A stretch of DNA of 64,000 nt. It comes from an uncultured Candidatus Saccharibacteria bacterium. Its GTDB lineage: Bacteria > Patescibacteriota > Doudnabacteria > UBA920. Shown in pieces: positions 4,518 to 64,000 of the stretch. Where the stretch lies: contig CAZHIA010000004.1 in assembly GCA_964532425.1 (NCBI GenBank), positions 19,740 through 83,739 of the forward strand, read 5' to 3'. The translations under genes and the position numbers were made by a program. Position 1 is the first letter of the stretch. Every line of letters begins with the position of its first letter. A model generated the notes under the pieces. That model had not been told where the DNA came from. It searched no databases and saw only the letters and a list, made by a program, of their open reading frames with translations.

Positions 4518-4540
4518 TGAATCAACCCGCCAACATACAA

Positions 4541-5550: not shown

Positions 5551-5579
5551 AAAATCCCTAGTATTTACTAGGGATTTTA
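5551..5579 (-). terminator. Intrinsic terminator downstream of the 5595-6569 gene
   Basis: AAATCCCTAGTATTTACTAGGGATTTT perfect hairpin with a T-tract. Confidence 0.7.
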
Positions 5580-5594
5580 TAAAATATGCCTTAT

Positions 5595-6569: not shown

Positions 6570-6666
6570 ATTTTCACATTATCCTTCTACAATCAAAGTA
6601 TACCAAATTCCTCAAAATTAAGCAGCCCTTGGCGAGCACTATGATACAAGGAAGTATCGTAGTAGA

Positions 6667-6702
6667 TACAAAACAACCCCGTCCTCAGATTGAGGACGGG
6701 GT
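6667..6702 (-). terminator. Intrinsic terminator of pnp
   Basis: AACCCCGTCCTCAGATTGAGGACGGGGTT hairpin plus a U-tract on the minus strand. The stem is shared with the terminator at 21309-21346. Confidence 0.75.
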
Positions 6703-6755
6703 TGTGTAAATTTTGTATCACTTCTCCCTTCACACTATTGCCTTCTGCCTAAGGT

Positions 6756-9080: not shown

Positions 9081-9216
9081 GAATTGTCCTTTCTTGCCCC
9101 GCCCTTTGCTCACAAAGAGCGGGGTGTGTTTCAGAGTGTTATGCGTGTTGACGAGGACTTTTTTTAAAAATCCTTCGCTATACCCGCACACCACCGCTGA
9201 AACATTAATAAATTAA

Positions 9217-9320
9217 TTGACAAAATTTAAAAAATTGAACAAAATTGACAAAATTATTCAAACCAGCCTGCAATTTATTTTTGTCAATTTTGTCATTTTT
9301 GTCATTTTTGTCAATATTAC
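9217..9320. promoter_or_regulatory. Iteron-like array: about 3 forward and about 4 reverse copies of TTGACAAAAT in the pnp upstream region
   Basis: AATTGACAAAATTT..AAAATTGACAAAATTA.. then TTTTGTCAATTTTGTCATTTTTGTCATTTTTGTCAA. Each unit contains a TTGACA (-35-like) hexamer. A similar TGTCA triplet array lies upstream of the xer gene (11965-11995). Confidence 0.5.
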
Positions 9321-9721
9321 TACTTCCTCATACTTCCCAGCATCTCTTCCTCAAAATGGAGCAGGAACTGGATCGGATCCGGGGTGCTGCCAAACAAGAT
9401 GTGGTCAACACTGCTGCGCTGGCCGCGGTCCTTCATGCTTTCCACGCCCTTCTCCTGAAACCAATCCTTCCATAATAGACTAAACTGCCGGTACCCCTCT
9501 GACCCCTCTTCGCCGAACCGCTCATAGATTATCTGGTATTTCGTCGTATCACAGATATTGATGAACTCGCTTTTTTCATCCAAAGTCAAATACCCATGCT
9601 TCTGCAAAGCATCTTTTAATTCCTGAATGCGTGGCGAGGTATACACAGCTTGGCAGATTTCCCTGCCAAGCTGTGTCCATTCGGCATCGAATTTTTCAAA
9701 ATCTAGAGATCTTTCAGTCAT
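9320..9721 (-). CDS. Hypothetical protein, 133 aa, inserted between rpsO and pnp
   Basis: ORF in track; no motif. Confidence 0.5.
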   Translation of the reverse strand: MTERSLDFEKFDAEWTQLGREICQAVYTSPRIQELKDALQKHGYLTLDEKSEFINICDTTKYQIIYERFGEEGSEGYRQFSLLWKDWFQEKGVESMKDRGQRSSVDHILFGSTPDPIQFLLHFEEEMLGSMRK

Positions 9722-9786
9722 GAATCAACTGGGGGTCAGTAAAAAATCTTTCTGATATTTCCTGAATATCGGATTCGTATGCGGAG

Positions 9787-10065
9787 CTATTTATTATCCG
9801 CTATTTTTATCTTCAATTTCTCAGCAATCTTTTCCCAGCGCTTCTGGTCTTCGTTCTTGAGGTAGCGAAGCAACCGGCGGCGATTACCGACCATTTTCAA
9901 CAAACCGCGGCGGGAATGGTTATCCTTACGGTGAACCTTCAGATGCTCGGAAACCTGTTCGATTTCCTTGGTCAGGATCGCGATTTGGACTTCCGGGCTG
10001 CCGGTATCGTCCTTATGGATCTGGTACTTCTTAATGAGAGCAAGCTTCTCTTTGTTCGAGAGCAT
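9787..10065 (-). CDS. rpsO: 30S ribosomal protein S15
   Basis: [16 protein letters not shown]...[18 protein letters not shown] is canonical S15. ATG at 10065 with an AAGGA RBS. Confidence 0.9.
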
Positions 10066-10277
10066 GACTTTTTCCTTCTGCACGTCAATGGTAGCCCTGA
10101 AGCTTTATAGAACCACTGCGTGGATTAATTAAATCCCTGATAAACATCCACAGGATATTTATTCAAAGTAAAAATATTATACAGTATTTGAGAGATTGAT
10201 GCAAATTTTGCCACCCTGTCAAAGTAGTCTTCAGCCATGCGGCCTGGTGGCTAAAACCCTCCTTTAACGCCCCGTTC

Positions 10278-46629: not shown

Positions 46630-46938
46630 TTAATCCTTGTGGCAGATAAACTGCCTGATATATTTAATCAATGGGGTTTTGTGCAAAGAGTAACAAATTT
46701 TCTTCCCCTCTCGCCTCGTACTGACGATGTCAAATTCCTGAAGCATTTGGAGATGATGGGAAACGGCTGCCACGCTCATCTTGAGACAGCCGGCAATATC
46801 GGAAACACAGATGTCTGTATGCTCAAAAAGAGCGCACAGAATGCGGATTCTCGTCTCATCCCCTGCCAGCTCCAAGATCTTGGCCTTCTTGGCCAAATCC
46901 TGAGTCAGCAGCTTAGGTTTGATGGCTGTTTGTTCCAT
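46630..46938 (-). CDS. arsR: ArsR/SmtB-family metalloregulatory transcriptional repressor
   Basis: HTH LAGDETRIRILCAL and a sensing CVSDIAGC. Start at the ATG at 46938; the track extension to 47025 was rejected. Confidence 0.8.
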   Translation of the reverse strand: MEQTAIKPKLLTQDLAKKAKILELAGDETRIRILCALFEHTDICVSDIAGCLKMSVAAVSHHLQMLQEFDIVSTRREGKKICYSLHKTPLIKYIRQFICHKD

Positions 46939-46945
46939 ATGTAAA

Positions 46946-46975
46946 ATATCATTCAAATAACTGTTTGAATGATAT
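46946..46975. promoter_or_regulatory. Candidate ArsR operator: perfect 12-6-12 inverted repeat ATATCATTCAAA-TAACTG-TTTGAATGATAT in the divergent arsR / trx-arsP promoter region
   Basis: Perfect palindrome starting 8 nt upstream of the arsR ATG. Confidence 0.55.
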
Positions 46976-47072
46976 ACCGATAATATTTTTCTGTCAAGCC
47001 GGCATACCAGACTCGATGTTGCCAAAAAGACCGGATGAATATATCATAATAACAGCAATTATTCTTGCCGAT

Positions 47073-47315
47073 ATGAAAATCCAAGTTTTAGGCGCAGGCT
47101 GCCCCACGTGCAAAAAACTCTATGAAATAACTCAACAGGCGGTTTCTCAGTTACACCTTCCCGAAGAGGTGGAATATGTTACCGACATTCAGCAGGTATT
47201 GGATATGGGGCTTATGTCCAGTCCCGTGCTGGCTGTAAACGGCAAACCCGTGTTAGTCGGTTTCATTCCCGACATAGAAAAAATCAAATCAGCCATACAG
47301 AAACACATTGCTTAA
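47073..47315 (+). CDS. Thioredoxin-family redox-active disulfide protein (Thioredoxin_3 / TIGR00412-like)
   Basis: MKIQVLGAGCPTCKKL...SSPVLAVNGKPV. Start at the ATG at 47073; the track extension from 46965 was rejected. Confidence 0.75.
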   Translation: MKIQVLGAGCPTCKKLYEITQQAVSQLHLPEEVEYVTDIQQVLDMGLMSSPVLAVNGKPVLVGFIPDIEKIKSAIQKHIA

Positions 47316-48278
47316 ATGAATATCTTTTATCCGCTCCAAGCCCTAGCCGACTGGCTGGCATACCACGCCTTTCGCCTGCCCCACGAAAAGCTGGGTGAAG
47401 CCGTTAGCTATTTTATTTTTGATTCAGTCAAAATCCTGTTGCTGCTGGCAGTAATCGTTTTTGCGGTCTCGTTGCTCCGCACGTTTCTGCCGCCAGAAAA
47501 GACACGCAAGCTCCTGTCCGGTACAGGCACATACACAAGCAATGTTCTGGCTGCCGCTTTGGGCATTTTTACCCCTTTCTGCTCCTGCAGCGCTATCCCC
47601 TTATTTTTAGGGTTCGTGCAGGCAGGCGTACCGCTTGGCGCCACCTTTTCCTTTTTGGTAGCCTCCCCGATGATAAACGAAGTAGCGTTAGTGCTGCTGC
47701 TTGGCTTATTTGGCTGGAAAATTGCTCTTCTGTATATTATGAGCGGCTATATTATTGCTGTTCTTGCCGGTGTGATTATCGGCAAATTAAAACCGGAAAA
47801 TTTACTGGAATCCTTTGTAATACAAAACTCTATCACTACTGACGTCGAACTGCCGGACCTGACGTGGTCAGACAGACTGATCTACGCCAAAACCTATACA
47901 TCAGATACCGTAAAGAAAGTTTGGGTGTATATTTTAATCGGTATCGGCATTGGCGCTTTTATCCACGGGTACGTGCCTGCCGATTTTCTGGTCCGATATG
48001 CCGGCAGCGGCAACTGGTACAGCGTACCACTGGCCGTACTGATCGGCATCCCACTCTACTCCAATGCCGCCGGTATCGTGCCGCTCGTGAGCGCTCTGAC
48101 GGAAAAGGGCGTAGCCATGGGCACCACCCTGGCCTTTATGATGTCGGTCACTTCCCTCTCCTTGCCGGAGTTTATGATCTTAAAAAGGGTCATGAAAGTT
48201 AAACTGATCGTAATTTTTGCCGGGGTAGTGGGAGCAGGTATTATGCTTACCGGTTTTCTGTTTAATTGGGTGTTATGA
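47316..48278 (+). CDS. ArsP/DUF318-family permease (organoarsenical-efflux-like)
   Basis: Hallmark TPFCSCS motif (GIFTPFCSCSAIPLF); 8 TM helices. Confidence 0.75.
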   Translation: MNIFYPLQALADWLAYHAFRLPHEKLGEAVSYFIFDSVKILLLLAVIVFAVSLLRTFLPPEKTRKLLSGTGTYTSNVLAAALGIFTPFCSCSAIPLFLGFVQAGVPLGATFSFLVASPMINEVALVLLLGLFGWKIALLYIMSGYIIAVLAGVIIGKLKPENLLESFVIQNSITTDVELPDLTWSDRLIYAKTYTSDTVKKVWVYILIGIGIGAFIHGYVPADFLVRYAGSGNWYSVPLAVLIGIPLYSNAAGIVPLVSALTEKGVAMGTTLAFMMSVTSLSLPEFMILKRVMKVKLIVIFAGVVGAGIMLTGFLFNWVL

Positions 48279-48452: not shown

Positions 48453-48528
48453 GGCGGCTATGGTATAATGGTTATTACGCTGCTCTGTGGAAGCGGAAAT
48501 ACGGGTTCAATTCCCGTTAGCCGCCCCA
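48453..48528 (+). tRNA. tRNA-His (anticodon GTG) with G-1 and encoded CCA
   Basis: G(-1)GCGGCTA acceptor pairing with TAGCCGC plus discriminator C; anticodon loop CTGTGGA; T-loop TTCAATT. Confidence 0.88.
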
Positions 48529-48575: not shown

Positions 48576-50399
48576 TCAGGCAACAGGCGGCTTCAGCGGC
48601 AGGTGGACGGTTACCGTTGTCCCCTTGCCCAGTGTCGATTCCAGAGAGATGGTACCGCCATGCCCGGTAATGATCGTTTTACAAATGTACAAACCAAGGC
48701 CGGTGCCGACATTTTTCATATCGATGGCGTTCGTAGCGCGGAAGAACTGGGTAAACAAAAGATCCTTGTCCTTGTCCGGTATGCCGATGCCGGTGTCTGT
48801 TATGCGGATATGAGCCTGCGTTTCGTCCGCGTTTAGATCAATATCAATAGTCCCGTTCTGTGGGGTGTACGTCACGGCGTTGTCAACGAGGTTTTCAAAC
48901 ACCGATATCAGGTACAATGAATTACCTAACAGCACCGGCATGTTAGCCTTACTGGTACAATTCCACACTAAGTGCTTTTCGGTAATTATCTGCAGACGCT
49001 TATCATGGAGCTGTTTGAACACAGTCGGGAGATCGACGGGCATCTTGAGGGCATTCTTATAATCAAAACCCAAGTCAGAAACCGTAATAAGATCGCGAAT
49101 GATCGCACCAAGCTGCTCGAGACCCGCGCCCAGATCCTGTTTGAGTTGGGCTTCTTCCTCGATCTTCGTTGTTTTTTTCAAGAGGTCAAAATTCCATCGT
49201 GCAATAGACATGGGCGTGCGCAACTGGTGGGAGGTATTTTTGATGAGCTGCTCTTTAATGCGCGATACTTCCTGTTCCTTGCGCAAAGACTCAGCCAAAG
49301 CCTTCTCGCGTATCTCTATGGCTTTGAGTTCCTGCAGGCGCTTGAGATCATCCCCCATCCGGTTGAAAACCAACCCCAGCTCTTCCAGTTCGTCATGCGT
49401 CGGAATGTCGATCTTATACTCGAAATGACCTTGTCCGATCCTGGTCGCACCAGCCTGCAAAATCCGCAGCGGGGAAAGGATCCTCCGTCCTGCCAGCCAG
49501 CCCAGAAACGCAGCCAACAGTATGGCGATCGTTGAGAACAGCAACACTTGATATTGAATATCCTTCACGATCTGGAACGCATCGGCCTTCGGCCATTCCG
49601 CAACGAGCGCCCACTTGAAATTGTTCAGCGGCAATCCGGCCGCTAATACGGTCTCGCCGAGCACGCCGGGGCGCTGGTCATCACCAAGCAGCCCGTCATG
49701 CTGCTGTCCAGCAAGAAGTCCTTTTGTCCATTGCCAATCCCCTATATTTTTTCCCTGGAGGGATGGATTAGCACTGGCAAAGATGGTGCCCGACGCGTCG
49801 ATAACATACACGTAGTTGGTCTGCCCCAGACCGGCACGGCTGATTGTGCGCACCAACGGATCCAAATTAATAATCCCAGAAATAACCATGACCACCTCAC
49901 CGCTCTTATTCGTGACCGGACCGGCAATGGTCATTAATGTTCCGGATTCCGTATATTGCAGGGGTCCGAAATACAGTTTTCCGGTCTTGGCGCGCTGAAA
50001 ATATGGTAACCGGCTGACATCCTGCTTATTGATTCCGCTGGCATCCTGCACCTGCGAAAGTTTGAAGGTCTCCTTACCGGAAGCGTCAATGAGCGAGGCC
50101 TCGATGATATTCTTATTCTCGGTGAGCAAGTCTTCAAGCAGCGATTCCTGGTCGGCGGCACTGATACTTAAAAACTGAGTGTACCCGACGTGCACATCGA
50201 ACAAACCCGCCGTATCTTCCAGAAAGCGATTAATCTCTGCGCTCTGCTGCTTGAGCAGCTGCGTTTCCATCATCGCAACGTCCTGGCGGTGGGTGTACGT
50301 AATATAGTACTGAGCCACGATCCCCAGCATGACCAGCGGGAGCAGCCCAAGCAGGACGAAGGCAATGGTTAATTTTGTACCGAGACTAATGATGCGCAT
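48576..50399 (-). CDS. Sensor histidine kinase with an extracytoplasmic Cache-like domain, HAMP, HisKA and HATPase_c
   Basis: Two TM helices flanking a ~270-aa periplasmic domain; H-box NTSHQLRTPMS; G-boxes GTGLGLYICK and GKGTTVTVHLP. Confidence 0.85.
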   Translation of the reverse strand: MRIISLGTKLTIAFVLLGLLPLVMLGIVAQYYITYTHRQDVAMMETQLLKQQSAEINRFLEDTAGLFDVHVGYTQFLSISAADQESLLEDLLTENKNIIEASLIDASGKETFKLSQVQDASGINKQDVSRLPYFQRAKTGKLYFGPLQYTESGTLMTIAGPVTNKSGEVVMVISGIINLDPLVRTISRAGLGQTNYVYVIDASGTIFASANPSLQGKNIGDWQWTKGLLAGQQHDGLLGDDQRPGVLGETVLAAGLPLNNFKWALVAEWPKADAFQIVKDIQYQVLLFSTIAILLAAFLGWLAGRRILSPLRILQAGATRIGQGHFEYKIDIPTHDELEELGLVFNRMGDDLKRLQELKAIEIREKALAESLRKEQEVSRIKEQLIKNTSHQLRTPMSIARWNFDLLKKTTKIEEEAQLKQDLGAGLEQLGAIIRDLITVSDLGFDYKNALKMPVDLPTVFKQLHDKRLQIITEKHLVWNCTSKANMPVLLGNSLYLISVFENLVDNAVTYTPQNGTIDIDLNADETQAHIRITDTGIGIPDKDKDLLFTQFFRATNAIDMKNVGTGLGLYICKTIITGHGGTISLESTLGKGTTVTVHLPLKPPVA

Positions 50400-51508: not shown

Positions 51509-54500
51509 CTATACCTTATTCAAAGCCTTGCGGGTCAGCGTATCGAGCACCCCGCTCTGCTTTAACCCCTGTGACTGCTGATACTGTTTGACCGCAAGTA
51601 CGGTCGCATCGTCAAACGTCCCTGTCACTTCGCTTGAAACCGGCAGGAAGCCGAGCGTCTGCAGGGTCTGCTGGAGATATTTTACTTCGGTGTCTTTCCG
51701 TCCTTTACTGAGATACTTGGTAAACGCCGTGTTCTTGGGTGGCTGCGGCAGCTTCTTTATTGCACCACTGACCCGTACGGACAGAGCAGCCGTAAATCCT
51801 GACTCGTTACCAGCAGCATCAACGGCCACCAAGCGATAGTAGTAACGTTTGTTGGCCTTAACGGCAGCGTCCTGAAAGAACGAACCGGTTTCCATGGAAG
51901 CAATCGGCGAGCCGATATCTTTAGCCGACTCCGAACGATAGACCTTGGTGTGGTGGAAATCGACTTTGGGGTCGGTCCAGGTCAAGGTAACTTGGGTTTT
52001 ACCGGTGCGGTACCCTTTCACGTTCAGCGGAGTCAGAGGCGGCGTTACATCAGCCGGGGCAACCAGCGCAAACCTGGTAAAATGCCTGACATGAAGAATA
52101 ATCCGATGGTTTTGCTTATCGACGGTGTAATTATCGATCTTAACCCAGGCGCCGACTGACTCATCAAAATAACTTGGCGCCAAACGGTCCTCCGAAACAC
52201 CGAGTTTGAGCAAGTCTTCCCGGGTATATGGCAAAGTGATTTCCACATCGTTTGCCAAAGCAGTGACCGGTTTTTCCGACTGATCCTTCATGCTAATATC
52301 GTACACCGTACCAATAACCCTGGCGGTTTGTTGCGTAGGAACTTCAACAGTCGGCTTGACATCAACCTGAACACTCTGAGCAGCCGGAGCAGCACCCGCA
52401 GGTACCACCACGCCTGCGCCGCTGCTGGATTGTACGATGACAGGTTCGGTAGTCGAACTGGTTGCCGATACCGCTTCCGGAAGCGGTTTAGAAGAAACTT
52501 GCAAGAGAATAACGGATATCATCGCTGGCTGGGAGGAAGTGTCAACGACTGTTTCCGCAGACTTGTATGCGTACCCAGCGACCACTTTTCCCGCTCCGAT
52601 ATGCCAGCGCTGGCCAACGGCAAGCGTCAAAGCGAATAATCCGTCCGCGTCCGTACTGGCGCTGGCTGTCCCGCCCTGTTCCGACCAGGCCCACACGGCC
52701 GCTTCCGCTATTGCAGTACCGTTGGACATCTTCGTGTTTCCGCTCACCGTGACCGTAGTCGCAGCTTGAGGTTTTTTGAAAACAACCGTTACTGATTTGT
52801 CTTCACCAATCACAACAGTGAAATTTTGATCAATGGGATTCACAAAACCTTCCCCTGCTGGCGCATAAAAGTGCAAAGCATAATTTCCTGGCACGACCAT
52901 AAAGCTCACCGCACCCACGGAGTCCGTCTTTTTGAATTGGGATGGGAGTGCCGCAGAAGCACCCGCGACCGGAGAGATCCCGATACCTGCGCCAGCCATG
53001 GGCTTCCCCTGCTCATCTGTGGCAGCAACGGTAACCTTGGCAGTCAGCACGGTAACCGAAAAGTTCAATGTGGCCGTTTCCGCTATGGAATTGTCTGCTA
53101 GCGTAATCACTTGCGGCTGGTTCTGCCAGACCCAGGTTGCAGCCGTCGTGGTCGCGGGCAGAATACTGATATTCCACACGCCAGGACTAAGCTTTAGATA
53201 ATATGTTCCGTCACCGGCAACCGGCGCAGTCAGCCACTGCCCCGTGGTCTGACTCACCGCTTTCACGACTGCATCGGCAACCGCTTTGCCGTCGCCCGTC
53301 CGAACCGTTCCAGAAACAGCCTTACTAGCCGCTGCCAAAGCCTTTAACTGGAATGACTGATCCAACATTTGACCTGCAGTGACGGTAATACTTGCCGGCG
53401 CCGGTTTGACCAAATCATTCCGGTCGCTCGGCAGCAACACCTCGACAGAGTAACTACCGGGAGCCAACGTAATGGAATACGTGCCGGTAAAGCCGGTTAC
53501 TGCCTGGGTGTTCACGCTGAAGTCGGCGTTATACGCATGGATCCCGACTTTTGCCACTGGTTGCCCACTCTCGTCTGTTATGGTTCCGGTTACGATTGCC
53601 AGTGTAACGGCGGTAGTGCTCGGAGCCGCAGTCTCTGCGGTCGTAGTCGATACAGAAGAATTCGGCGCTACTTGATTTACTCCGACAAGCGGCGAAATAT
53701 TCGTTTTCCCGGGTACAACGCTCACAATATTCGAGACCGCTGAATAGAGCGGATAAGCCCCCGGGGCTGGCTGTGCAAACGCCTGAACTTTGTAATAATA
53801 GTAGACCCCTGCAGAGACATTCGTGTCCGTATACTCCGTCGTATTGGCTGACACGTTACCAATATCAGTCCAGCCTCCCGAAATAAGTTTGTACAACTTA
53901 AAACCCGTCTCGTTCGTAGAATTATCGGTCCACCTCAAACTCACATAACTCGTACTTGCCATAACTACTGCAAGGTTTGAAGGCGCGGCAGGTGCCGTAA
54001 TTGACGGCGAAGTCGTCGTCGGAGCAGTGACAACACTCGAGGATGTAGTCGTGGTAGAAGCTGCCGGAGGGGCAGTACTCGTACTGGCAGTAACCGTGAC
54101 GGTCGCTGTATTCGATACCGGCGAATACGCAATCGAATTCGCTGACTGGATAAAAGACTGTACGCGGTAGTTGTAGGTCTGCCCAGCGGTCACGGAAGTG
54201 TCAGTATATGTAGTCACACCCGCACCCACATTCGTAAGTTCGGTCCACAGACCGCTTTTTATTTTGTACAGTTTGAACCCGGACTCATTCGTTGAATTAC
54301 TGACCCAAGTCAGTTTTACAGAACCACCAACTACGGTAGCAGCCATACCACTCGGGGCATATGGCGGCGTAAGGGAGGATGAGCCGGTTCCAGAGGTGGT
54401 GGAGGTAGAAGGCGCGACCACATTCACTACTACGCTGTCAGTGGCTGTCCCATTCGCTCCAGTACAGGTCATTCCATACGTATTTTGCGCGACTACCGAT

Positions 54501-55708
54501 ACGCTATTAAACTGCCAGCTGCCAGAAGTTCCCTTGTTTGTATTGCCCCATGTTCCCGATGTCACACAACTGGTAGCGTTAGAGGAAGTCCACGTAGCGG
54601 TATAATTTGTCGGGGCGGTCAGGGTCAGCGGACCGTCTTGATTATTTATCTTAATATCAACCGTGACCGGGTTGTTAGAGGTAACACCCGAACCGGTGCC
54701 AGCAGTCGATGCTGCCGCAACTACCGTCACGACATTGGAAACACCCGAGTATATAGGGTAATTATTTCCCTGCTGATTATAGGCTTGAACTTTATAGTCA
54801 TTGCTCACCCCTGGCGTAACACTGGAATCAGTATACGTTGTGACATTCGCCCCCACGGTGCCGATCTCCGTCCAAAGTCCGGTAATGGTCTTGTAAATCT
54901 TGAAGTTGGTTTCGTTCGATGAATTATCGGTCCAGCTCAGGACATTCTTACCAACAGCGGCAGATACCGAAAGACCGGTCGGGGCGGCCGGTGTAACCAC
55001 TGAGCAGGATTGAGCAAAGCCCGCTGAGGCACCGCTGGCATTCGCATATGTATTGTTAGCATCATACAAAACCGCTTCAAACGTGACCGGATTCTGGTAG
55101 CGGCCGCAGTACATTCCTAAGAGAGTCATAAAATCGGAATCAGTACACTGCGAGAGCAGAGCGGCCATGGTCGACACCGTCCCCTTGTTGATTTTAGCGT
55201 AATCCCTCCCTGAGTCCGCAAACGGCAGCATCGTAGGCAGGGCAACATCAGGCCGGCGAACCACGCACATGCCAGTATACTGTGTCGTAGGCTGGGTTTG
55301 CTGCTGGGTTGCCTGAATTACATGGATTATCACAGAGTCACTGGCACCATCACAGCTGATGGTAAAGGTGTAATCTGCGGCTAATAGTCCTGAAACCTGC
55401 TGGGTGCCGTTACCGGAAGCAATGGGTTGGCCCATAGTGCTGCCCATAGTCCCGGAGACCTGGCAATTTGCCGTGTCGGACGAGGTCCAGCTCACCGTAA
55501 ATGTTGCCGGCGCAGTCATGGTTACCGGGCCATCACTGTTATCCGCCTTAATGTCCGCCACAGCTGCCGTTTGCGCAGTCACGCTCAATAACGGGACAGT
55601 CGCGGCTACAATCAAAACAGCAATAAAACCCGCACAAAAAAATGCCGGGTTTAAAAAAAATCCGAGAGAGCGCCTGGAGGGCCTGCGCAGGCTTGAGAGC
55701 TTGCTCAT
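51509..55708 (-). CDS. Giant cell-surface protein (1399 aa): N-terminal anchor/signal, multiple fibronectin-III-like and Ig/CarboxypepD_reg-like domains, C-terminal peptidoglycan-binding (PG_binding_1) domain
   Basis: FN3-like units (NLAVVMASTSYVSLRWTDNSTNETGFKLYK...YYYYKVQAF, three copies); C-terminal YLQQTLQTLGFLPVSSEVTGTFDDATVLAVKQYQ matches PG_binding_1. Confidence 0.8.
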   Translation of the reverse strand: MSKLSSLRRPSRRSLGFFLNPAFFCAGFIAVLIVAATVPLLSVTAQTAAVADIKADNSDGPVTMTAPATFTVSWTSSDTANCQVSGTMGSTMGQPIASGNGTQQVSGLLAADYTFTISCDGASDSVIIHVIQATQQQTQPTTQYTGMCVVRRPDVALPTMLPFADSGRDYAKINKGTVSTMAALLSQCTDSDFMTLLGMYCGRYQNPVTFEAVLYDANNTYANASGASAGFAQSCSVVTPAAPTGLSVSAAVGKNVLSWTDNSSNETNFKIYKTITGLWTEIGTVGANVTTYTDSSVTPGVSNDYKVQAYNQQGNNYPIYSGVSNVVTVVAAASTAGTGSGVTSNNPVTVDIKINNQDGPLTLTAPTNYTATWTSSNATSCVTSGTWGNTNKGTSGSWQFNSVSVVAQNTYGMTCTGANGTATDSVVVNVVAPSTSTTSGTGSSSLTPPYAPSGMAATVVGGSVKLTWVSNSTNESGFKLYKIKSGLWTELTNVGAGVTTYTDTSVTAGQTYNYRVQSFIQSANSIAYSPVSNTATVTVTASTSTAPPAASTTTTSSSVVTAPTTTSPSITAPAAPSNLAVVMASTSYVSLRWTDNSTNETGFKLYKLISGGWTDIGNVSANTTEYTDTNVSAGVYYYYKVQAFAQPAPGAYPLYSAVSNIVSVVPGKTNISPLVGVNQVAPNSSVSTTTAETAAPSTTAVTLAIVTGTITDESGQPVAKVGIHAYNADFSVNTQAVTGFTGTYSITLAPGSYSVEVLLPSDRNDLVKPAPASITVTAGQMLDQSFQLKALAAASKAVSGTVRTGDGKAVADAVVKAVSQTTGQWLTAPVAGDGTYYLKLSPGVWNISILPATTTAATWVWQNQPQVITLADNSIAETATLNFSVTVLTAKVTVAATDEQGKPMAGAGIGISPVAGASAALPSQFKKTDSVGAVSFMVVPGNYALHFYAPAGEGFVNPIDQNFTVVIGEDKSVTVVFKKPQAATTVTVSGNTKMSNGTAIAEAAVWAWSEQGGTASASTDADGLFALTLAVGQRWHIGAGKVVAGYAYKSAETVVDTSSQPAMISVILLQVSSKPLPEAVSATSSTTEPVIVQSSSGAGVVVPAGAAPAAQSVQVDVKPTVEVPTQQTARVIGTVYDISMKDQSEKPVTALANDVEITLPYTREDLLKLGVSEDRLAPSYFDESVGAWVKIDNYTVDKQNHRIILHVRHFTRFALVAPADVTPPLTPLNVKGYRTGKTQVTLTWTDPKVDFHHTKVYRSESAKDIGSPIASMETGSFFQDAAVKANKRYYYRLVAVDAAGNESGFTAALSVRVSGAIKKLPQPPKNTAFTKYLSKGRKDTEVKYLQQTLQTLGFLPVSSEVTGTFDDATVLAVKQYQQSQGLKQSGVLDTLTRKALNKV

Positions 55709-57004: not shown

Positions 57005-57185
57005 CTCTAGTATACCAGATTTCCCCTTATTTTGGCCAACCGAAGCCAGACTACGTCCAACGCAGCAAATATCTTACCCTCTCTGTTTGCCTGGCGCGTG
57101 GCAAGGTGCCGTCCATCTACGGCCCCTCAACTGACTATCCGGGGCAATAGTCAATACAATTAGGACAAAAAGTTTGAGGCGTACC

Positions 57186-57863
57186 TCAAGATTTTTCTGG
57201 CTGTTCATTTTTCGTTAAGAGATCCTCACACACGCGATACCACTCACCAATCAGTTCCTTCCTTTTTTGTTCACCGCCCTCCCCGACCTCCTCCCGGACT
57301 TCGCGCGTCAAAAAATCTGCCAATAGGCTCACTATCGCCTGGAAGCCGAAAGCTTCCACTATAGGGCGGACGCGCGCTTCGTCGTAGAGGTCCCCCAAGT
57401 GTTCCTGGGCGTAGACCAGACAGGTCTGCAGGCGCTCTTGCCGATCCTGGTCACGAATCCGCTGCTGCTCTTCAGGATCGACCTTATCATTCTTGTGAGC
57501 CACTGCATACTCATACCCCTCGTACCATTCGGCAATGACCTGGTCCCGGGTCATCGTTTCACCTTCTGTGGGATAATCTTCGACAAGTATCAATTTTTGC
57601 CCCAGACTCTGTACAGCCGCGTACCCGAACGCGAGCAGGATCGGGCGGACCCGGGCCTCATCAAATGCATCCTTCAAATACTCCCGGGCGTATCGCATAT
57701 TCACCGGCAGACGCCGCTCCCGTTGAGATTGTTCCCGCTCATTCTCCTTCTGGCGCTGCATCTCCAGCATTCTCTCTGCCGCTTGTCGTTCGCGCTCAGG
57801 CCGGTTTAACTCGTCTTGCAGATCCGCCAGCCGCGTGTAATGGTCCGGTATTTCTATACTCAT
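57186..57863 (-). CDS. Hypothetical coiled-coil protein with an internal tandem duplication
   Basis: Repeats ARVRPILLAFGYAAVQSLGQKLILVEDYPTEGE... and ARVRPIVEAFGFQAIVSLLADFLTREVREEVGE... Confidence 0.55.
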   Translation of the reverse strand: MSIEIPDHYTRLADLQDELNRPERERQAAERMLEMQRQKENEREQSQRERRLPVNMRYAREYLKDAFDEARVRPILLAFGYAAVQSLGQKLILVEDYPTEGETMTRDQVIAEWYEGYEYAVAHKNDKVDPEEQQRIRDQDRQERLQTCLVYAQEHLGDLYDEARVRPIVEAFGFQAIVSLLADFLTREVREEVGEGGEQKRKELIGEWYRVCEDLLTKNEQPEKS

Positions 57864-57903: not shown

Positions 57904-59373
57904 TTATTGCCTTTTATGATCTACCTTCGTCGTTTCGGAAAACTCTTTCAGCAATAGAGAATCAATGAGCAATTCGTGTTTGCGTAGCTGAATTAATATT
58001 TTCGCCTCTTCCTTGGTTAGCGGGATGTTCAGTTGTTTTTTCTCCAGAATGCGAATGTCCTGGCCGAGCTGCTTTTTGAGCGCCATAAAGTCACGGGAGA
58101 TCTGGTGGTACAAGTCATACGGTACGATATCGCGACCGAGCCTGCAAGAGCGGCGGCTTTTGACTAACAGCCAGAGCAAAAGAACAGCGAGCAGGAGCAG
58201 GAGCAGGCACATGCCACTGAGCACGATCACGAGCGTCTGGTTTCCAGCAGCGGCAGGAGCGGCGATTACAACCGGTACTTGCTGCTGTGGCGCGGACTGC
58301 ACGGGTTCACGTACGGTAAATGCAAGTTCCTTGGAGGATTTATTTCCCGCCTTATCCACTGCCTGTACACTCAGAACGTGACCACCCTTCGTTACATCTG
58401 CAAGAGCGTACAATTGCGAGCCGGTCTTAATCCAACTCACTGGCGGGTTGCCGTCGAGCGATACCTCAAAATGGTCGATGCCGGACGGCGTATCGGTCGC
58501 TTCAAAATCAAAAGCATTCTGGGAAAGATCAGGTTGTGTCAAACTCTGCCATGTGGGGCGCTCGGTATCGATCTGGAAGCGCACATGCTGCGTCGCGCTC
58601 CAACCGGCTCGGGAATAATATTTGATATGGAAATACCAAATCCCATCAGCCACGTTTTTATAGGTATGATATCTGTACAGCCCATACCCGGAACTACCAG
58701 GTACGGTGTCAGGGTTCCTGTCAGCAGTAAATGAGACTTGCGTGGCCGCGGGCGGTACGGTCCATTCGAAACGAACGGCATTGCCGCTGTACCACTGGGC
58801 AGGATCCGGATGAGTTGTGGAACGCACGGCAAATTCACCCTGGACTGGCAACGGCGAAGTCTCCGTTTGAGACGCGGCTGCGATTGTAATATTGGCCGAA
58901 CGGGCTCCCGCGTAAATATTGGTGCCGCTGCCGTCTGCCAGCAGAATCCTACCGCTTGAAATTGAGACTGCCGCGGCCCCCTCCTGCAGGGCTTTAAAAG
59001 TCACCGCCAGCACAGCAGTGCCGCTACCACTATAGCCTTTGGGTGAACCGCCGGCAAAAGAAACTGCTGAACCACTGATCGTTGGTTCTTGCGGCCAGTA
59101 GGAAAAAACACTGCCCTTTGAAACGCTTACGGCTTTGAGCAGATTCCCATCGAACGTAATCGACCCTTCTGCAGCATTGACCGAGCTGCTGCCGGTATCT
59201 ATGACAAGTGAGAGCTTGACACTCTCCCCGATTCTGACGGTTTTTTGTGCCGGGGAGAATCCAAAAAAAGCGCTCTCGGCCTGTGCAGGCACAGGGCCGA
59301 CTGCTACCCAAAGAATAACAGCGACTAAAAGCGCACTGAAGAATTTAGTGATGTGTTTTATGTTTCCTGGCAT
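57904..59373 (-). CDS. Secreted, C-terminally membrane-anchored protein with an N-terminal cohesin-like domain
   Basis: Signal peptide; cohesin-like pattern (ITFDGNLLKAVSVSKGSV...GSGTAVLAVTFKALQEGAAAVSIS...LADGSGTNI); C-terminal TM plus cytoplasmic tail. Homologous to the 59345 protein. Confidence 0.55.
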   Translation of the reverse strand: MPGNIKHITKFFSALLVAVILWVAVGPVPAQAESAFFGFSPAQKTVRIGESVKLSLVIDTGSSSVNAAEGSITFDGNLLKAVSVSKGSVFSYWPQEPTISGSAVSFAGGSPKGYSGSGTAVLAVTFKALQEGAAAVSISSGRILLADGSGTNIYAGARSANITIAAASQTETSPLPVQGEFAVRSTTHPDPAQWYSGNAVRFEWTVPPAATQVSFTADRNPDTVPGSSGYGLYRYHTYKNVADGIWYFHIKYYSRAGWSATQHVRFQIDTERPTWQSLTQPDLSQNAFDFEATDTPSGIDHFEVSLDGNPPVSWIKTGSQLYALADVTKGGHVLSVQAVDKAGNKSSKELAFTVREPVQSAPQQQVPVVIAAPAAAGNQTLVIVLSGMCLLLLLLAVLLLWLLVKSRRSCRLGRDIVPYDLYHQISRDFMALKKQLGQDIRILEKKQLNIPLTKEEAKILIQLRKHELLIDSLLLKEFSETTKVDHKRQ

Positions 59374-60283
59374 GTCGTTTCTTTACTGTCAGTATGGCAA
59401 AAATTACCGCGAGCAGCAACAACGCCACGGCCAACCAACCAAACCGTCGGTTGTCCGGAAATGCGAATACCTGTGACGCAATCCGCTCATTGCCCGCGCG
59501 GTCAACTGCCTTAACCAGCACTGTCACGGTTCCCTGTTGATGCTGCAGCACAACAGGGCTACTGACCAGCTTCCACGCACCAGGCTGGCCAGTACCGGGT
59601 CGGCTATTACCGTCCAGCTCCTGCATCTGGTAATAGGATATTCCGGAATCTTTATCAAGCGCCTGGAATGAGGCAAAATACTTGCCGCCGAACATTTCCG
59701 GGTTCCGGCTGATGGAAATTATAAAGGGTTCAGGCGGGGTGGAATCCTGCGTGCTTGCGTACTGTTTAGGCGCATACTGTGATGGCGCCGGTAGAATGAC
59801 CGCTTTTGCCGGCACGAGGCCAGGCGAAATACGCGTACCAGCGCCATCGTTCAAGTAGACGGCACTTGAGGTATTGAATGCGAATTCTGCCGTACCCGCA
59901 GAGACAGCTTTGGCCACCACTGTTCCGACCAGGCCACCACTGCCGGAAAATCCGGGATTCGGCAACCCACCGGCAGCAGACACCACGGACAAATAGGGGG
60001 AATGTGCTAGGGGTGATGTCCAGAGCTGGACGATAGAACCGGCACTGTCAACGGCCTGCACCTCTACGCTATCGCCGGAGTATAGCAAATCCATCCTGAC
60101 AGCATTTACCGGCTTTTCCGCATCAAGATAGACGCGAACCGGAAACACGTCCCCGGCATACAGCGGGCCGTCCGGCAATACCACGCGCAATGCCGCAGCT
60201 TGGACCAGCAATGGTATGCCAAAAAGCAAAATTACCAATACGATTTTAGCTGTTTTATATATATTCATTACTCCGTCCACCAA
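59345..60283 (-). CDS. Secreted, membrane-anchored protein with a cohesin-like domain (paralog of the 57904 protein)
   Basis: VRMDLLYSGDSVEVQAVDSAGSIV...GSGGLVGTVVAKAVSAGTAEFAFNTSSAVYLNDGAGTRI; C-terminal TM plus basic tail. Overlaps the upstream gene. Confidence 0.55.
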   Translation of the reverse strand: MVDGVMNIYKTAKIVLVILLFGIPLLVQAAALRVVLPDGPLYAGDVFPVRVYLDAEKPVNAVRMDLLYSGDSVEVQAVDSAGSIVQLWTSPLAHSPYLSVVSAAGGLPNPGFSGSGGLVGTVVAKAVSAGTAEFAFNTSSAVYLNDGAGTRISPGLVPAKAVILPAPSQYAPKQYASTQDSTPPEPFIISISRNPEMFGGKYFASFQALDKDSGISYYQMQELDGNSRPGTGQPGAWKLVSSPVVLQHQQGTVTVLVKAVDRAGNERIASQVFAFPDNRRFGWLAVALLLLAVIFAILTVKKRHARKHKTHH

Positions 60284-61617
60284 TACATCATAATGCTAAA
60301 ATCAACCAGGTCGACGCTCCCATCCTGGTTCAAATCCGCTGCGGGATTTTTTGGCGTACCCCAGTTGAACATCAAAATACTGAAGTCAACCAGATCTACC
60401 CTGCCATCGCAGTTAATATCAGCTATTCCGCATTTTCGGTCAGGGCTTATTGGGTTGATTTTAGTGCCGAAAACGCCGAACATGCTCAAACGATCCTGAG
60501 CAGTACTTATAATCCTGAGTGTGGTATTCCGGCTACCGCCGCTCTCTAACCAGCCCACCGGGGGATCCTGCAGACGGTATAAAACGAATGTGGATTCCTC
60601 ATGACTTGCCACCTGGGCCGCGGTATACCCGAACGTGTATTGCAACGGCTTTAAAAATGTATCTACGGTCTTCCCCGCTCCATCCTGGGCCATAACACTA
60701 AAAGCGTACGATCCGCTCAAATCCAAACTATCAGGCGGCATGACTAATGCGTTGACCGTGGCTTTGGGCAAAGCCGCGATCACAAAAGTAACCACCGAGG
60801 CATAAAAGTTCCGCGGGATACTTATTTTCAATGTCTGGCCGTCCGGTGCGACGAAATTAATTTCGTTGTCGGTTTCGGGATCCACCGTGTAGGTACCCAA
60901 AGGACTTGGCGGAAACCTGAGCCCCCCGCTCGCGGGCTGGGGCGGAGCCGGCGGCTGAGGCGGTTGTGACGGCTCACCGCTCTTACCGCCGCCGACGGAA
61001 ACTTGATTAACCATGGCAACCATGGCAGCGCTTTCGTCGATAACCTCGCTGCCCGCTAACTTGGTCTGGAGGGATATTGTATAAGACCCCTCTGCAGCGG
61101 CGTTGATCACCTGGTGCGTTCCGGTTCCTCCATATGTTGCATTGCTGCCGATTCGAATGGAAAGTTGGGTTTGAGCAGGAAGGATGTCAGTGTCATTCAA
61201 CGTGAGTACGAGCGATTGCCCGGCAACCGCAAATCCCCACGGACTTCCGGCACCTGTTCCTGCGATAGTCGCAAGCGGTTGCTGCCTGCCGTTTATAAGC
61301 ACATCAACATCTTGGAAATCCAGAGCAGCCGGAACGACAAGCTGGTTCGAAAATAGAACCTCAAGTTGACCGGAAGGAAGAACGGGTTGGGTTGTCGTAA
61401 AACGTATCTCATGGTCAGCTCCCCGCCCCGGCGCCGAGGTCGATATCGTGTCACTGACAACAGTCAGGTCTCGCACATGACCCGAAACAAATACAGGCTG
61501 GCCAAAAAACAAGAGACTGCAAGTCAGCAGGCATGCAAAAGCAGGCCGGAACAGTCCGGAATGTCTGCGTACGATTCCAGCCAGATGCAGAAAAACCTGC
61601 CCTGCCTTGTGCTGCAT
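60268..61617 (-). CDS. Secreted protein with a C-terminal type-I dockerin-like domain
   Basis: Duplicated Ca-binding loops DINCDGRVDLVDFSILMFNW and DLNQDGSVDLVDFSIMMYWW; Pro-rich linker PPQPPAPPQP. Confidence 0.65.
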   Translation of the reverse strand: MQHKAGQVFLHLAGIVRRHSGLFRPAFACLLTCSLLFFGQPVFVSGHVRDLTVVSDTISTSAPGRGADHEIRFTTTQPVLPSGQLEVLFSNQLVVPAALDFQDVDVLINGRQQPLATIAGTGAGSPWGFAVAGQSLVLTLNDTDILPAQTQLSIRIGSNATYGGTGTHQVINAAAEGSYTISLQTKLAGSEVIDESAAMVAMVNQVSVGGGKSGEPSQPPQPPAPPQPASGGLRFPPSPLGTYTVDPETDNEINFVAPDGQTLKISIPRNFYASVVTFVIAALPKATVNALVMPPDSLDLSGSYAFSVMAQDGAGKTVDTFLKPLQYTFGYTAAQVASHEESTFVLYRLQDPPVGWLESGGSRNTTLRIISTAQDRLSMFGVFGTKINPISPDRKCGIADINCDGRVDLVDFSILMFNWGTPKNPAADLNQDGSVDLVDFSIMMYWWTE

Positions 61618-61621: not shown

Positions 61622-62002
61622 TTAGCGATACCCTAACTGTTTTTTATTTCTTTTAAAGTCCAAATAAAAATTTATTCCAAGCAGGAAAAATAAAGCCAGC
61701 TCCAACAGGAAAATAACCTGTAGCATCATGCTCTTCCGGGAATTAATCCTCTCGAGCTGGTTCGCTTGCATCTCAAGCTGCCGCTCTTTCTGTGCCAATT
61801 CACGGTCTTTAGCCTGGATCTGCTCCACGGCGGAATTCACCGGATTTGGCAGCACTTCCGCTGAGGTGTTCACTCCAGCTACCGCGCCATACTCCGGCAC
61901 TGACGGCTTTAAGAAGCCAGGTGTCACAAAACCGGCAGCCAAAAGTATTGCCCCCGCAATGAATAGCATCCCATACACTTTCGTAGGCCATGAGAATTTC
62001 AT
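61622..62002 (-). CDS. Small membrane protein with a coiled-coil region
   Basis: N-terminal and C-terminal TM helices. Confidence 0.5.
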   Translation of the reverse strand: MKFSWPTKVYGMLFIAGAILLAAGFVTPGFLKPSVPEYGAVAGVNTSAEVLPNPVNSAVEQIQAKDRELAQKERQLEMQANQLERINSRKSMMLQVIFLLELALFFLLGINFYLDFKRNKKQLGYR

Positions 62003-62016: not shown

Positions 62017-63087
62017 TTACGCCAACAGCGAAACAACGAGCATCACCAGTGCGCCAACCACTGCGACAATGACAATTGCAATCATCGCCATCATGAGTAA
62101 CGAAGGCGACGCAGGCATTGTCCGGGAGACTGCCTGAGCCCGCGCCGACCCTGCTGCACTACCAATCTTCGAACGGATATACAATCTTACGCCGATGACT
62201 AACATAAGAAAGATTCCGAGCAGTGTTCCTAAAACGGTAAAGATGATTCCCTTCGGTAGAACCCAAAACCCGGTCTCGCCGCTTAATGTCTTTTTCCCCT
62301 GGTCGCCGTAGGAAAGTATCAAGCGGGCTTTGTAATTGCCAAAGACCAAACCTTCGCCCTTCCAGTTTTGCGTGAACTGGCGAATGGATTTCGGGAAGAC
62401 ACCCGCACCGCTGTCATTGACCGGCAGTGTTGCCACTTTCTTGCCGAACATATCTGAAATCTCGATGAAGCCCACGGGCTGGACCAGCGTATTGCCCACA
62501 TTTTCGATACGGGCCGTAAAATTCACCTCTGGCGTACCGTAAAGGCTGCGGTCAGTACGAAATTCGCGGATCTGCGCCTCATCATCGGCATCCCCGCTAA
62601 TGCGAATGCTGACTATGGAAGCAACTTCAAAGCCGACACCGGTGCCATTTGGCGTGTTTTGAGGAGGTTGCTGGGTGAAAAAGATAGCCCCAAAATGACC
62701 GCCCGGCTGCGCATCAGCCGGCACCGCAACGGTAAACGGCACTTCCTTGCTGGCCCCGCTCTGCAGGGTTACCGAAGTCACTGGCAGTTGGATCCAGGAA
62801 GCCAGCCCGTATTCGTTCGCCCCGGTTTGTTCTGAAAATTGTGGCTGCCCTGTTTCGGTCAGGCCGCTGATATTCCTTTTCTGAATATAATACGTCTGTT
62901 GCTGCTGGCTGACGTTGGTGACGGTCAGCGTTCCGGAAAAAGTCTTGCCGGGATCCACGCGCTGCTGCGTGATCGCAGGCTTAACTTTTATTCCTGCCAC
63001 ATCGGTTTGCGCGGTAGCCGGTACGCTTAAAACTAACATCAGGAAGGCTAATGCTGCGCCGGCCGCGTACTTTGCGATTCTCTTCAT
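62017..63087 (-). CDS. Cell-surface protein with signal peptide and C-terminal TM anchor (DUF916/DUF3324-like architecture)
   Basis: Signal peptide, beta-rich ectodomain, C-terminal hydrophobic anchor; the architecture recalls DUF916 proteins of WxL loci. Confidence 0.45.
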   Translation of the reverse strand: MKRIAKYAAGAALAFLMLVLSVPATAQTDVAGIKVKPAITQQRVDPGKTFSGTLTVTNVSQQQQTYYIQKRNISGLTETGQPQFSEQTGANEYGLASWIQLPVTSVTLQSGASKEVPFTVAVPADAQPGGHFGAIFFTQQPPQNTPNGTGVGFEVASIVSIRISGDADDEAQIREFRTDRSLYGTPEVNFTARIENVGNTLVQPVGFIEISDMFGKKVATLPVNDSGAGVFPKSIRQFTQNWKGEGLVFGNYKARLILSYGDQGKKTLSGETGFWVLPKGIIFTVLGTLLGIFLMLVIGVRLYIRSKIGSAAGSARAQAVSRTMPASPSLLMMAMIAIVIVAVVGALVMLVVSLLA

Positions 63088-63142: not shown

Positions 63143-64000
63143 TTAGAAAACTGGAGTTGCGACATACGTTAAGGTATTGGTGTAATCCTTGGCAGCTTGC
63201 TGCAGCGAAGTCACGCGAATGCGGATACCGACCCTGGTCGCACCCTTGTCAGCTGTCGAGCCGTCAGCGGGACCATTGTTGCTGAATACCGGTCTGGCCG
63301 TCAAGATGTTTCCCGCATACTTTGGCGTACCATGGCCGAATTCATTCGTATTAATGTCGTCTTCCGAAGTGATACCGTAATGTCCCCAGGTCGTCGTCGA
63401 GGAAAGAGAACCGGTGGGGTTAGCCCAGGCTGCTGGCGTGCTGGTTGCGTCATCATTGTAGAACATGTGGATCTGGGCTCCGTTACTGCTGGTTAACCGC
63501 TGGTTTTCCTGGACTGTTACCGTAAATCCATTCACTGCGTTCGTGGTCACTGCCAAACTCTGTCCTGCGACATAGTCCGTATTCGGTGCCAATGTGCCAA
63601 AATTAATTGCCGTAGCCGTGGTGGTCGTGCTCGTGTTCACTGCCTCGCCGTTAATCGACTGGCCGGAAGCCACGCCGCTCACCGTAAAGGTGAATGACGT
63701 GTCCACTGCAGCGCTCATCGTGACCTGACTGACAATCGCCACCATGGTATCAGCCGCATCAGCCATTGTTCCGCCAATATTAATCTTGTACGACCCAACT
63801 GCCGGATTGACTATTTGATGAGCCCCGCCGATTGTGATCTGCAGGGTGGCCCCGGCGGCGGCCGGAGTGCCGCTGGTGGGGGCGGTCAAAGTAACCGTAC
63901 TGCCCGACGAACCGACTCCCCAGGCTGATGACGAATTGGATGCCGCGGTCGTGGTAGCGACGCTATTCACAGTCATCGTCACATCAGAAAAGACGATTGC
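63143..64000 (-). CDS. Partial CDS (5' end beyond window): Thr/Ser-rich surface protein with a WxL-like C-terminus
   Basis: ORF remains open to the window edge. The C-terminus ...KDYTNTLTYVATPVF resembles the YxxTLTWxL..P end of WxL-domain proteins. An N-terminal signal peptide is not visible in the window. Confidence 0.45.
   Translation of the reverse strand, partial: AIVFSDVTMTVNSVATTTAASNSSSAWGVGSSGSTVTLTAPTSGTPAAAGATLQITIGGAHQIVNPAVGSYKINIGGTMADAADTMVAIVSQVTMSAAVDTSFTFTVSGVASGQSINGEAVNTSTTTTATAINFGTLAPNTDYVAGQSLAVTTNAVNGFTVTVQENQRLTSSNGAQIHMFYNDDATSTPAAWANPTGSLSSTTTWGHYGITSEDDINTNEFGHGTPKYAGNILTARPVFSNNGPADGSTADKGATRVGIRIRVTSLQQAAKDYTNTLTYVATPVF

Follow-up and report, generated by a model that had tools for sequence, protein, structure and literature searches.

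A probable non-cellulosomal cohesin-dockerin surface display system in a conserved operon of the Patescibacteria

The 64-kb window analyzed in this study, a stretch of contig CAZHIA010000004.1 (assembly GCA_964532425.1, positions 19,740 to 83,739 of the forward strand) from an uncultured Candidatus Saccharibacteria bacterium, carries on its minus strand a closely packed group of genes encoding two membrane-anchored proteins with cohesin domains, Coh1 and Coh2, and a secreted protein that ends in a dockerin. We propose that this locus is probably a non-cellulosomal cohesin-dockerin cell-surface display system of the Patescibacteria, or Candidate Phyla Radiation (CPR). We hold with high confidence that the modules are a true cohesin and a true dockerin. 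It also seems likely that the two modules are cognate and pair up in a display complex, because the dockerin gene adjoins the cohesin genes in all 12 loci compared, a dockerin protein and a Coh2-type anchor are fused in one of these loci, and another locus encodes an adaptor-like protein with both modules.

Results

Domain composition of the dockerin protein and its two candidate anchors

The original prediction had placed a secreted dockerin protein and two adjacent, paralogous, anchored proteins with cohesin-like N-terminal domains in this part of the window, and all three genes were found on the minus strand as described. The dockerin-bearing protein (449 aa, 60268..61617, minus strand, like all genes of the group) is composed of a signal sequence, a beta-sandwich (aa ~48-206), a Pro/Gly linker, a second beta-sandwich (aa ~240-388) and a C-terminal dockerin module (aa 395-449, 60271..60435), in which it ends with DINCDGRVDLVD...DLNQDGSVDLVD. 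Pfam Dockerin_1 (PF00404) matches the module in two stretches covering aa 399-443, with 25.2 bits against a cut-off of 22.9, which bears out the predicted duplication. The two 12-residue Ca loops, DINCDGRVDLVD and DLNQDGSVDLVD (D400-I-N-C-D-G-R-V-D-L-V-D411 and D428-L-N-Q-D-G-S-V-D-L-V-D439), are each followed by a helix (FSILMFNW and FSIMMYWW, respectively), and the module thus presents the tandem duplication that defines a dockerin, with ~22-residue segments each made of an EF-hand-like Ca loop, with D/N at positions 1, 3, 5, 9 and 12, and a helix. Across 32 homologs, D400, D411, N430 and D439 never vary and conservation is at least 90% at D404, D428 and D432, the Ca-ligand positions 1, 3, 5 and 12 being invariant or at least 90% conserved. 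The halves of the module, read from sequence, are identical at 14 of 21 positions. In clostridial type I dockerins such half-to-half symmetry goes together with a dual binding mode, and by analogy the window dockerin may have one as well.

The two loops are the sole dockerin-type Ca loops in the six-frame translations of the window. In a phmmer search of the PDB, the best match of the module was the dockerin of Clostridium perfringens NagH (2jnk/2ozn, E 6e-4), followed by the weaker matches 5lxv, 2y3n, 2mte and 1daq, and relatives in Patescibacteria bear the NCBI name 'dockerin type I repeat-containing protein'. The AlphaFold2 (AF2) model of the whole protein, with a mean predicted local distance difference test (pLDDT) value of 86.7, contains two beta-sandwiches split by the Pro/Gly-rich linker and then two dockerin helices (409-417 and 437-448, pLDDT ~90). 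No catalytic or carbohydrate-binding module was found in the protein by Pfam, NCBIfam or Foldseek.

Coh1, the long anchor (489 aa, 57904..59373), consists of a signal peptide, a cohesin domain (58873..59280), a beta domain with the motif 'THPD..WYFHI', a Big_13 immunoglobulin (Ig) domain, a linker, a transmembrane (TM) helix and a cytoplasmic helical tail. The cohesin domain is recognized by Pfam (PF00963, 24.8 bits against a cut-off of 24.1, E 2.8e-5, profile positions 9-130 of 139), which also finds Big_13, and NCBIfam gave nothing beyond OmpL47-type and Big_13-like stalk domains. In the AF2 model (mean pLDDT 82.7, and 82-96 in the cohesin region), three beta domains are followed by a disordered linker, a long TM helix (377-413) and two further helices. 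When this model was compared with the PDB by Foldseek, nearly all compact single-domain matches were cohesins, of types I, II and III, the best of them with TMt 0.76-0.79 and a root-mean-square deviation (rmsd) of 2.2-3.0 A. The cohesin matches include 1g1k, 6kge and 6kgc (TMt 0.78, rmsd 2.2-2.3 A), the non-cellulosomal C. perfringens cohesins 2w1n (E 6e-12), 2jh2 and 2vo8 (TMt 0.79), and the non-cellulosomal cohesin 2xdh of Archaeoglobus fulgidus (TMt 0.75). In the model the domain has the nine-stranded beta-sandwich (jelly-roll) of cohesins and can be superimposed on solved ones.

Two further features of Coh1 were observed. The beta domain between the cohesin and Big_13 ('S.THPD..WY...DG.WYFHI...QIDT', window 58564-58834, aa ~180-270) is without a Pfam family, and the representative protein library contains giant proteins of 1,700-5,800 aa (P0139-P0148) in which it is repeated 7-16 times in tandem. 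The cytoplasmic tail (window 57904-58150, aa ~408-489), ~90 aa long, helical and coiled-coil-like, is kept across the family alignment, which is unusual for a mere surface anchor.

Coh2, the short anchor (312 aa, 59345..60283), is built of a signal peptide, a cohesin-like domain (59795..60202), a Big_13/OmpL47-like Ig domain, a TM helix and a short basic tail. Both Coh1 and Coh2 have a hydrophobic signal segment at the N-terminus and a TM segment at the C-terminus, in the manner of type-I membrane proteins, and each carries one cohesin, not an array. The paralogy of the two is evident in their N-terminal domains (BLASTP, 32% identity over 138 aa, E 8e-9) and in the hhalign comparison of the two ortholog families (probability 100%, E 6.5e-46), by which Coh2 corresponds to Coh1 minus one internal domain. 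Furthermore, a hidden Markov model (HMM) of the cohesin made from the Coh1 family matches Coh2 with E 1.2e-24, and Coh2 is predicted to share the cohesin fold through its homology to Coh1. The claim of two adjacent, secreted and C-terminally anchored paralogs with cohesin folds is therefore upheld, for Coh1 by Pfam and by AF2 with Foldseek and for Coh2 by profile homology; the HMM and structure checks that could have overturned the cohesin and dockerin identities did not do so.

Conservation of the gene trio in related loci

In regard to gene context, the window was compared with 11 related loci with upstream context (L001, L003, L005, L006, L007, L009, L010, L028, L031, L032 and L033) by running domain HMMs from family alignments on all fetched loci. 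In all 12 the cohesin genes have beside them a gene whose product carries a dockerin at its C-terminus (...DFSI[LM].YWTG); it lies directly upstream of them in 11, and in the remaining one (L031) a single gene stands between. The usual order is the dockerin gene, the short Coh2-type gene and the long Coh1-type gene, often with overlapping ends. The rest of the dockerin protein is variable, with 175 aa in L033, 1836 aa in L007 and ~300-450 aa in most of the loci, and the dockerin is the only invariant feature of the neighboring gene across the 12 loci, while the cargo changes completely. In the adjacent dockerin proteins of the 11 related loci, six domain models detected beta-sandwich modules only, catalytic modules not being scanned for and most of the 1836-aa L007 protein being unmatched by these models.

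In the closest relative (L028 2602-4824; P0029, 740 aa; GCA_038249015.1), the dockerin cargo is fused in frame with a Coh2-type anchor. P0029 keeps the cargo N-domain, the second sandwich and the dockerin, and a 'GDAPATLPGPA' linker replaces the Coh2 signal peptide; because this signal peptide is absent, we take P0029 for a real fusion and not for a read-through. The same contig encodes a close homolog of the DUF916-like protein of the window (E 4.8e-100). In the metagenome contig L031 a protein of ~250-265 aa with a cohesin and a C-terminal dockerin is encoded just downstream of the Coh1-type gene (9364-10158), an arrangement like that of an adaptor scaffoldin. In L007 the 1836-aa protein (4440-9950) ends in a dockerin (E 1.3e-10) and lies directly upstream of the Coh1-type gene, after which come genes for response regulators and a histidine kinase. 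In addition, a contig of Candidatus Portnoybacteria (L004 5-6455) carries five tandem cohesin-anchor paralogs, one of the Coh2 type and four of the Coh1 type, the contig start cutting away whatever precedes them.

In a collection with one genome per species, all close relatives of Coh1 belong to Patescibacteria, Parcubacteria, Paceibacterota or Portnoybacteria metagenome-assembled genomes. The PNPase encoded in the window has 77-84% identity to proteins bearing the names Patescibacteria group or Candidatus Doudnabacteria. When the region spanning the cohesin and the THPD domain was searched against 1.84 billion representative proteins, the matching clusters (50% identity) numbered 495 at E<=1e-30, 2,737 at E<=1e-10 and 6,079 at E<=1e-3, with proteins mostly of 400-600 aa and of the same architecture.

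Operon limits and upstream genes

We read the operon as seven genes, from the gene of a secreted two-domain protein to that of a 225-aa protein. The first, of which the window holds the 3' part (63143..64000, the frame being open to the window end), is separated by 55 nt from the gene of a DUF916/WxLIP-like membrane protein (62017..63087); this is followed after 14 nt by that of a small protein of 126 aa with a coiled coil between two TM segments (61622..62002), and after a further 4 nt by the dockerin gene. The dockerin gene overlaps Coh2, whose start is most plausibly the ATG at 60268, sharing one base with the TAA stop codon of the dockerin gene (TAATG, 1-nt overlap). The start of Coh1 sits 29 nt inside the 3' end of Coh2. 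Comparable overlaps exist among the cohesin and dockerin genes of the relatives. The 225-aa gene (57186..57863), 40 nt downstream of Coh1, is probably the last of the transcription unit, and a terminator-like hairpin at its stop codon (57174..57189), together with the 181-nt gap that follows, likely marks the 3' end of the operon; the hairpin was called by its match to a consensus, and such matches are no commoner in the window than in shuffled sequence. The 225-aa protein is cytoplasmic, highly charged and internally duplicated (the pattern 'Y A R/Q E. L. D.. D E A R V R P I.. A F G' appears twice); it belongs to no Pfam family, and none of the related loci was found to encode it. The 126-aa protein has a homolog in L028 (1819-2229, E 1.1e-11), and L006 contains a similar-looking gene for 136 aa.

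The original prediction named DUF916-like and WxL-like surface proteins among the neighbors, and the first of these was borne out in part. In the DUF916-like protein a signal peptide precedes two Ig-like domains, and a TM segment anchors the C-terminus; a second C-terminal hydrophobic segment is specific to the source genome. Its Pfam WxLIP_PGBD score falls just below the cut-off (25.9 against 27.3 bits), four of its five orthologs match this family (best E 1.6e-7), and HBD (DUF3324) was not detected in it. In tblastn it matched plasmid genes annotated as DUF916 with 28-32% identity, and the gene is present in 8 of the 12 loci, compared with 12 of 12 for the cohesin/dockerin trio. The WxL-like designation of the secreted protein did not hold, since neither the window fragment nor four orthologs match Pfam WxL at E<=1, no W-x-L motif occurs in the C-terminal domain of the protein or its orthologs, and the hhalign probability against genes upstream of bona fide DUF916 genes was <1%. 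PDB profile searches with both families gave no matches.

Orthologs of this secreted protein have 349-362 aa and a signal peptide, followed by an N-terminal beta-sandwich that is also found in the dockerin protein and by a C-terminal beta-rich domain ending in ...LTYVATxxF. Those of L001 (5615-6703) and L010 (7053-8129) match the N-domain of the dockerin protein with E ~1e-13 (HMM E 1e-21), and the protein is also encoded in L005, L009 and L031. Upstream of the cluster in L001 (3479-5518), L005 (3998-6068) and L009 (2571-6104), two more conserved secreted proteins are encoded, with the motifs '...ATPNPGH.W.EVG...' and '...LSCSITTAAACTS...'. Their equivalents would fall past the window end, and therefore the full operon may hold at least seven conserved genes.

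Neighboring units

The hairpin and the 181-nt gap stand between the operon and the genes of a two-component system, a giant protein and a putative metalloprotease, and we read the histidine kinase, the receiver, the 1399-aa protein and the zincin-like protein as units separate from the operon. As predicted, a histidine kinase and a receiver are found nearby and the 1399-aa protein contains FN3- and peptidoglycan-binding-type domains (3 fn3, 4 CarboxypepD_reg and PG_binding_1). The membrane metalloprotease is a looser call, as the zincin-like protein gave sub-threshold matches only. A two-component system adjoins the cluster in one other locus, L007, and no counterparts of the giant protein and the metalloprotease of the window exist in the related loci. 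All three were consequently rejected as parts of a module for lack of conservation. Of the dedicated, regulated module of ~15 kb that had been suggested, what recurs is the dockerin gene with the two cohesin genes, often together with the genes of the DUF916-like protein and of the secreted protein upstream; the rest is not conserved.

L003, L006 and L010 also encode giant proteins beside the cluster (1623, 1375 and 2310 aa, respectively), none of them homologous to the 1399-aa protein. The latter (window 51509-55708) includes at aa ~1180-1240 a beta domain ending in '...HVRHFTRFALVAPAD', which resembles both '...LSMFGVFG', the last strand of the second cargo sandwich, and H-F-S/T, the autoproteolysis-type motif seen in ZU5/GAIN-like domains. 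A shared second sandwich, suggested by the similar ...HFTRFALVA strand, was not supported, as the domain HMM matches nothing else in the window. Farther away, at 46630-48278, three genes in a row seem, as judged from reading their translations, to encode a helix-turn-helix regulator of the ArsR/SmtB type, a small thioredoxin-fold protein with a CxxC motif and a permease of 320 aa. They adjoin a tRNA-His gene (48454-48528) and a Cache/HAMP histidine kinase (48576-50399) and are unrelated to the cohesin-dockerin finding.

Discussion

According to the reading that we favor, the genes of the operon would be co-transcribed and, because their ends overlap, probably translationally coupled. Coh1 and Coh2 would be exported by the Sec pathway and held in the membrane by the C-terminal TM helix, with Ig-like stalks of two different lengths bearing a single cohesin at the distal tip. 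The dockerin protein would be secreted without an anchor of its own and captured non-covalently on the cohesins, its presumed partners, by the Ca2+-binding dockerin, possibly in a Ca2+-dependent manner. Cargo displayed in this way would be free of enzymes and made of beta-sandwich domains of the adhesin or surface-coat type. The second secreted protein, which shares the N-terminal domain of the cargo, would probably be held by the DUF916/WxLIP-like membrane protein. The outcome could be a surface layer or fibril with a structural or adhesive role, plausibly serving envelope organization or host-cell attachment and not polysaccharide breakdown.

Several observations weigh against this interpretation. 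The Pfam margins are thin (0.7 bits above the cut-off for the Coh1 cohesin and 2.3 bits for Dockerin_1), and neither Coh2 nor its seven orthologs have a direct match to Pfam Cohesin. Sequence-only PDB searches with Coh1, its family profile and the Coh2 profile found no cohesin at a significant E, the Coh1 family profile giving no PDB cohesin even at E<=1, and because of this the cohesin call draws on the fold together with one marginal profile hit; moreover, the cohesin jelly-roll is a common beta-sandwich. As the dockerin has L-V at recognition positions 10/11, which differs from the characterized types, the interface of the clostridial dockerins cannot be transferred to it. In Foldseek the cargo sandwiches match BslA/YweA (E 3e-6, TMt ~0.6) and ZU5/GAIN-type folds (E 6e-5, TMt 0.62-0.64), but with TMt 0.5-0.64 and rmsd 4-6 A such resemblances are weak, and they are not assigned to a particular cargo domain. 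Finally, adjacency of the genes could mean co-secretion or co-regulation without direct contact between the products.

The alternative that survives best, which we nevertheless consider unlikely, takes up this last point and accepts the folds as real but not the partnership. The cohesins would then be terminal adhesin domains on membrane stalks, binding a host or matrix ligand, while the dockerin would be a Ca2+-stabilised module or would bind otherwise, and the genes would adjoin as those of co-secreted surface proteins. The marginal Pfam scores and the unusual recognition residues are in accordance with such a scenario, as is the resemblance of the stalk domains to adhesin Ig domains, e.g., those of SiiE and Bap, and in the 2009 survey of Peer et al. 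many genomes reportedly carry orphan cohesins or dockerins. It leaves aside, however, that the dockerin is the one thing retained in the neighboring gene when the cargo changes completely, and that the fusion of dockerin cargo with Coh2 and the protein combining cohesin and dockerin are what a binding network predicts.

Less probable still is a WxL/Csc-type surface cluster, as known from lactobacilli and enterococci, that occurs here in CPR bacteria and in which the DUF916/WxLIP protein and a WxL-type protein would organize on peptidoglycan, with cohesin and dockerin as accessories. The DUF916-like protein is indeed built like a WxLIP protein, with a C-terminal TM segment after two Ig-like domains, and recurs in 8 of the 12 loci, and its gene is preceded, as in WxL clusters, by that of a secreted protein with a C-terminal beta domain. 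By definition, a WxL cluster comprises at least two proteins with a WxL domain, which contains two Trp-x-Leu motifs (PMC10599100, PMC9772566), and at this locus such proteins are not found, the secreted protein having neither a Pfam WxL match nor W-x-L motifs. The sub-threshold WxLIP_PGBD score, the undetected HBD and the greater constancy of the cohesin/dockerin trio likewise speak against this alternative.

A miniature cellulosome, with the cohesin proteins as scaffoldins that organize dockerin-bearing carbohydrate-active enzymes for polysaccharide degradation, is highly improbable: cohesin and dockerin are the defining cellulosome modules, and some metagenome surveys, one of them mentioning CPR taxa such as Dojkabacteria, take any of them as a marker of polysaccharide degradation, but each anchor has one cohesin in place of the array and the carbohydrate-binding module (CBM) of a primary scaffoldin, the sole dockerin protein of the window lacks the catalytic or carbohydrate-binding module of a cellulosomal enzyme, those of the 11 related loci showed beta-sandwiches only within the six-model scan, and no glycoside hydrolase was found among the window proteins scanned with Pfam (the operon, its neighbors and ten long open reading frames).

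The surface display system that we favor has several partial counterparts among known systems. All domains of life are known to have cohesins and dockerins outside cellulosomes, and the description of such pairs as poorly characterized in the original prediction needs qualification, as solved examples from C. perfringens and A. fulgidus are among our best structural matches. In the glycoside-hydrolase toxins of C. perfringens (NagH/NagJ; 2ozn, 2jnk, 2w1n, 2jh2, 2vo8), single cohesin and dockerin modules likewise act outside cellulose degradation, and from these toxins come both the structure that matches Coh1 best (2w1n) and the top PDB sequence hit for the dockerin (2jnk/2ozn). However, their modules join secreted enzymes, whereas the window has membrane-anchored cohesins, enzyme-free cargo and an operon conserved in Patescibacteria. 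The A. fulgidus cohesin 2xdh also comes from a non-cellulolytic organism, but its domain context differs, and we know of no conserved operon with membrane anchors described for it.

The anchoring scaffoldins of cellulosomes, such as OlpC of Clostridium thermocellum (4dh2) and ScaE of Ruminococcus flavefaciens (2zf9), both among the structures matched by the Coh1 model, also present a cell-bound cohesin that captures a dockerin partner, and two-module adaptor proteins, comparable to that of L031, exist there as well. They are attached through surface-layer homology (SLH) domains or by sortase to the wall, in contrast to the C-terminal TM helix of the window anchors and the cytoplasmic helical tail of Coh1, and the window system, unlike those with scaffoldins, has neither enzymes nor a CBM nor a primary scaffoldin with several cohesins. 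The WxL/WxLIP (DUF916-DUF3324) 'Csc' clusters of Firmicutes have the same combination of secreted proteins and a two-Ig, C-terminally TM-anchored DUF916-type protein, and their operon products have been proposed to form a non-covalent surface complex (PMC10599100, PMC9772566). Apart from the missing WxL domain and motif, the undetected HBD and the sub-threshold PGBD, the window differs from them in its cohesin-dockerin pair, which is foreign to known WxL clusters. The biofilm-coat proteins BslA and YweA of Bacillus subtilis (4bhu, 5mkd), the best fold match of the cargo, are like it secreted, Ig-like and non-enzymatic; with rmsd 5-6 A and 13% identity this is a resemblance only, and the hydrophobic cap that defines BslA was not part of the comparison.

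In the searchable literature on cohesins or dockerins in Patescibacteria, CPR, Parcubacteria and Saccharibacteria, we found no description of the operon, only surveys of carbohydrate-active enzymes and papers on Omnitrophota. What is new is the trio as a conserved operon of Patescibacteria, along with the fusion, the adaptor-like protein, the extent of the cohesin family and the enzyme-free cargo; non-cellulosomal pairs and the automated 'dockerin' labels on relatives were already known.

The Patescibacteria make up a large share of bacterial diversity. Most of them live in attachment to other cells, and annotation of their surface machinery is largely missing. The locus offers a testable handle on it, as a small conserved operon with a recognizable protein-protein coupling pair. 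If the binding is true, it would give a function to thousands of 'hypothetical' surface proteins of CPR bacteria and would mean that cohesin and dockerin also serve non-enzymatic surface display with anchoring by a membrane helix. It would furthermore provide new orthogonal cohesin-dockerin pairs for protein engineering and call for caution in using metagenome matches to cohesin or dockerin as markers of cellulose degradation.

A broader scheme, which we put forward only tentatively and as a whole, is a 'plug-and-display' system common to the Patescibacteria. A constant pair of cohesin sockets in the membrane, one of them with a conserved coiled-coil tail in the cytoplasm, would receive interchangeable dockerin-tagged cargo from 175 aa to ~1800 aa, chains could be formed via adaptors with both modules or via fusions, the assembly might act as an attachment device of episymbionts to their hosts or as an envelope scaffold, and the tail of Coh1 may relay the engagement of cargo or host into the cell. 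Should this be the case, cohesin-dockerin pairing would represent a general principle of bacterial surface assembly, with its largest reservoir in CPR bacteria and not in the cellulolytic clostridia.

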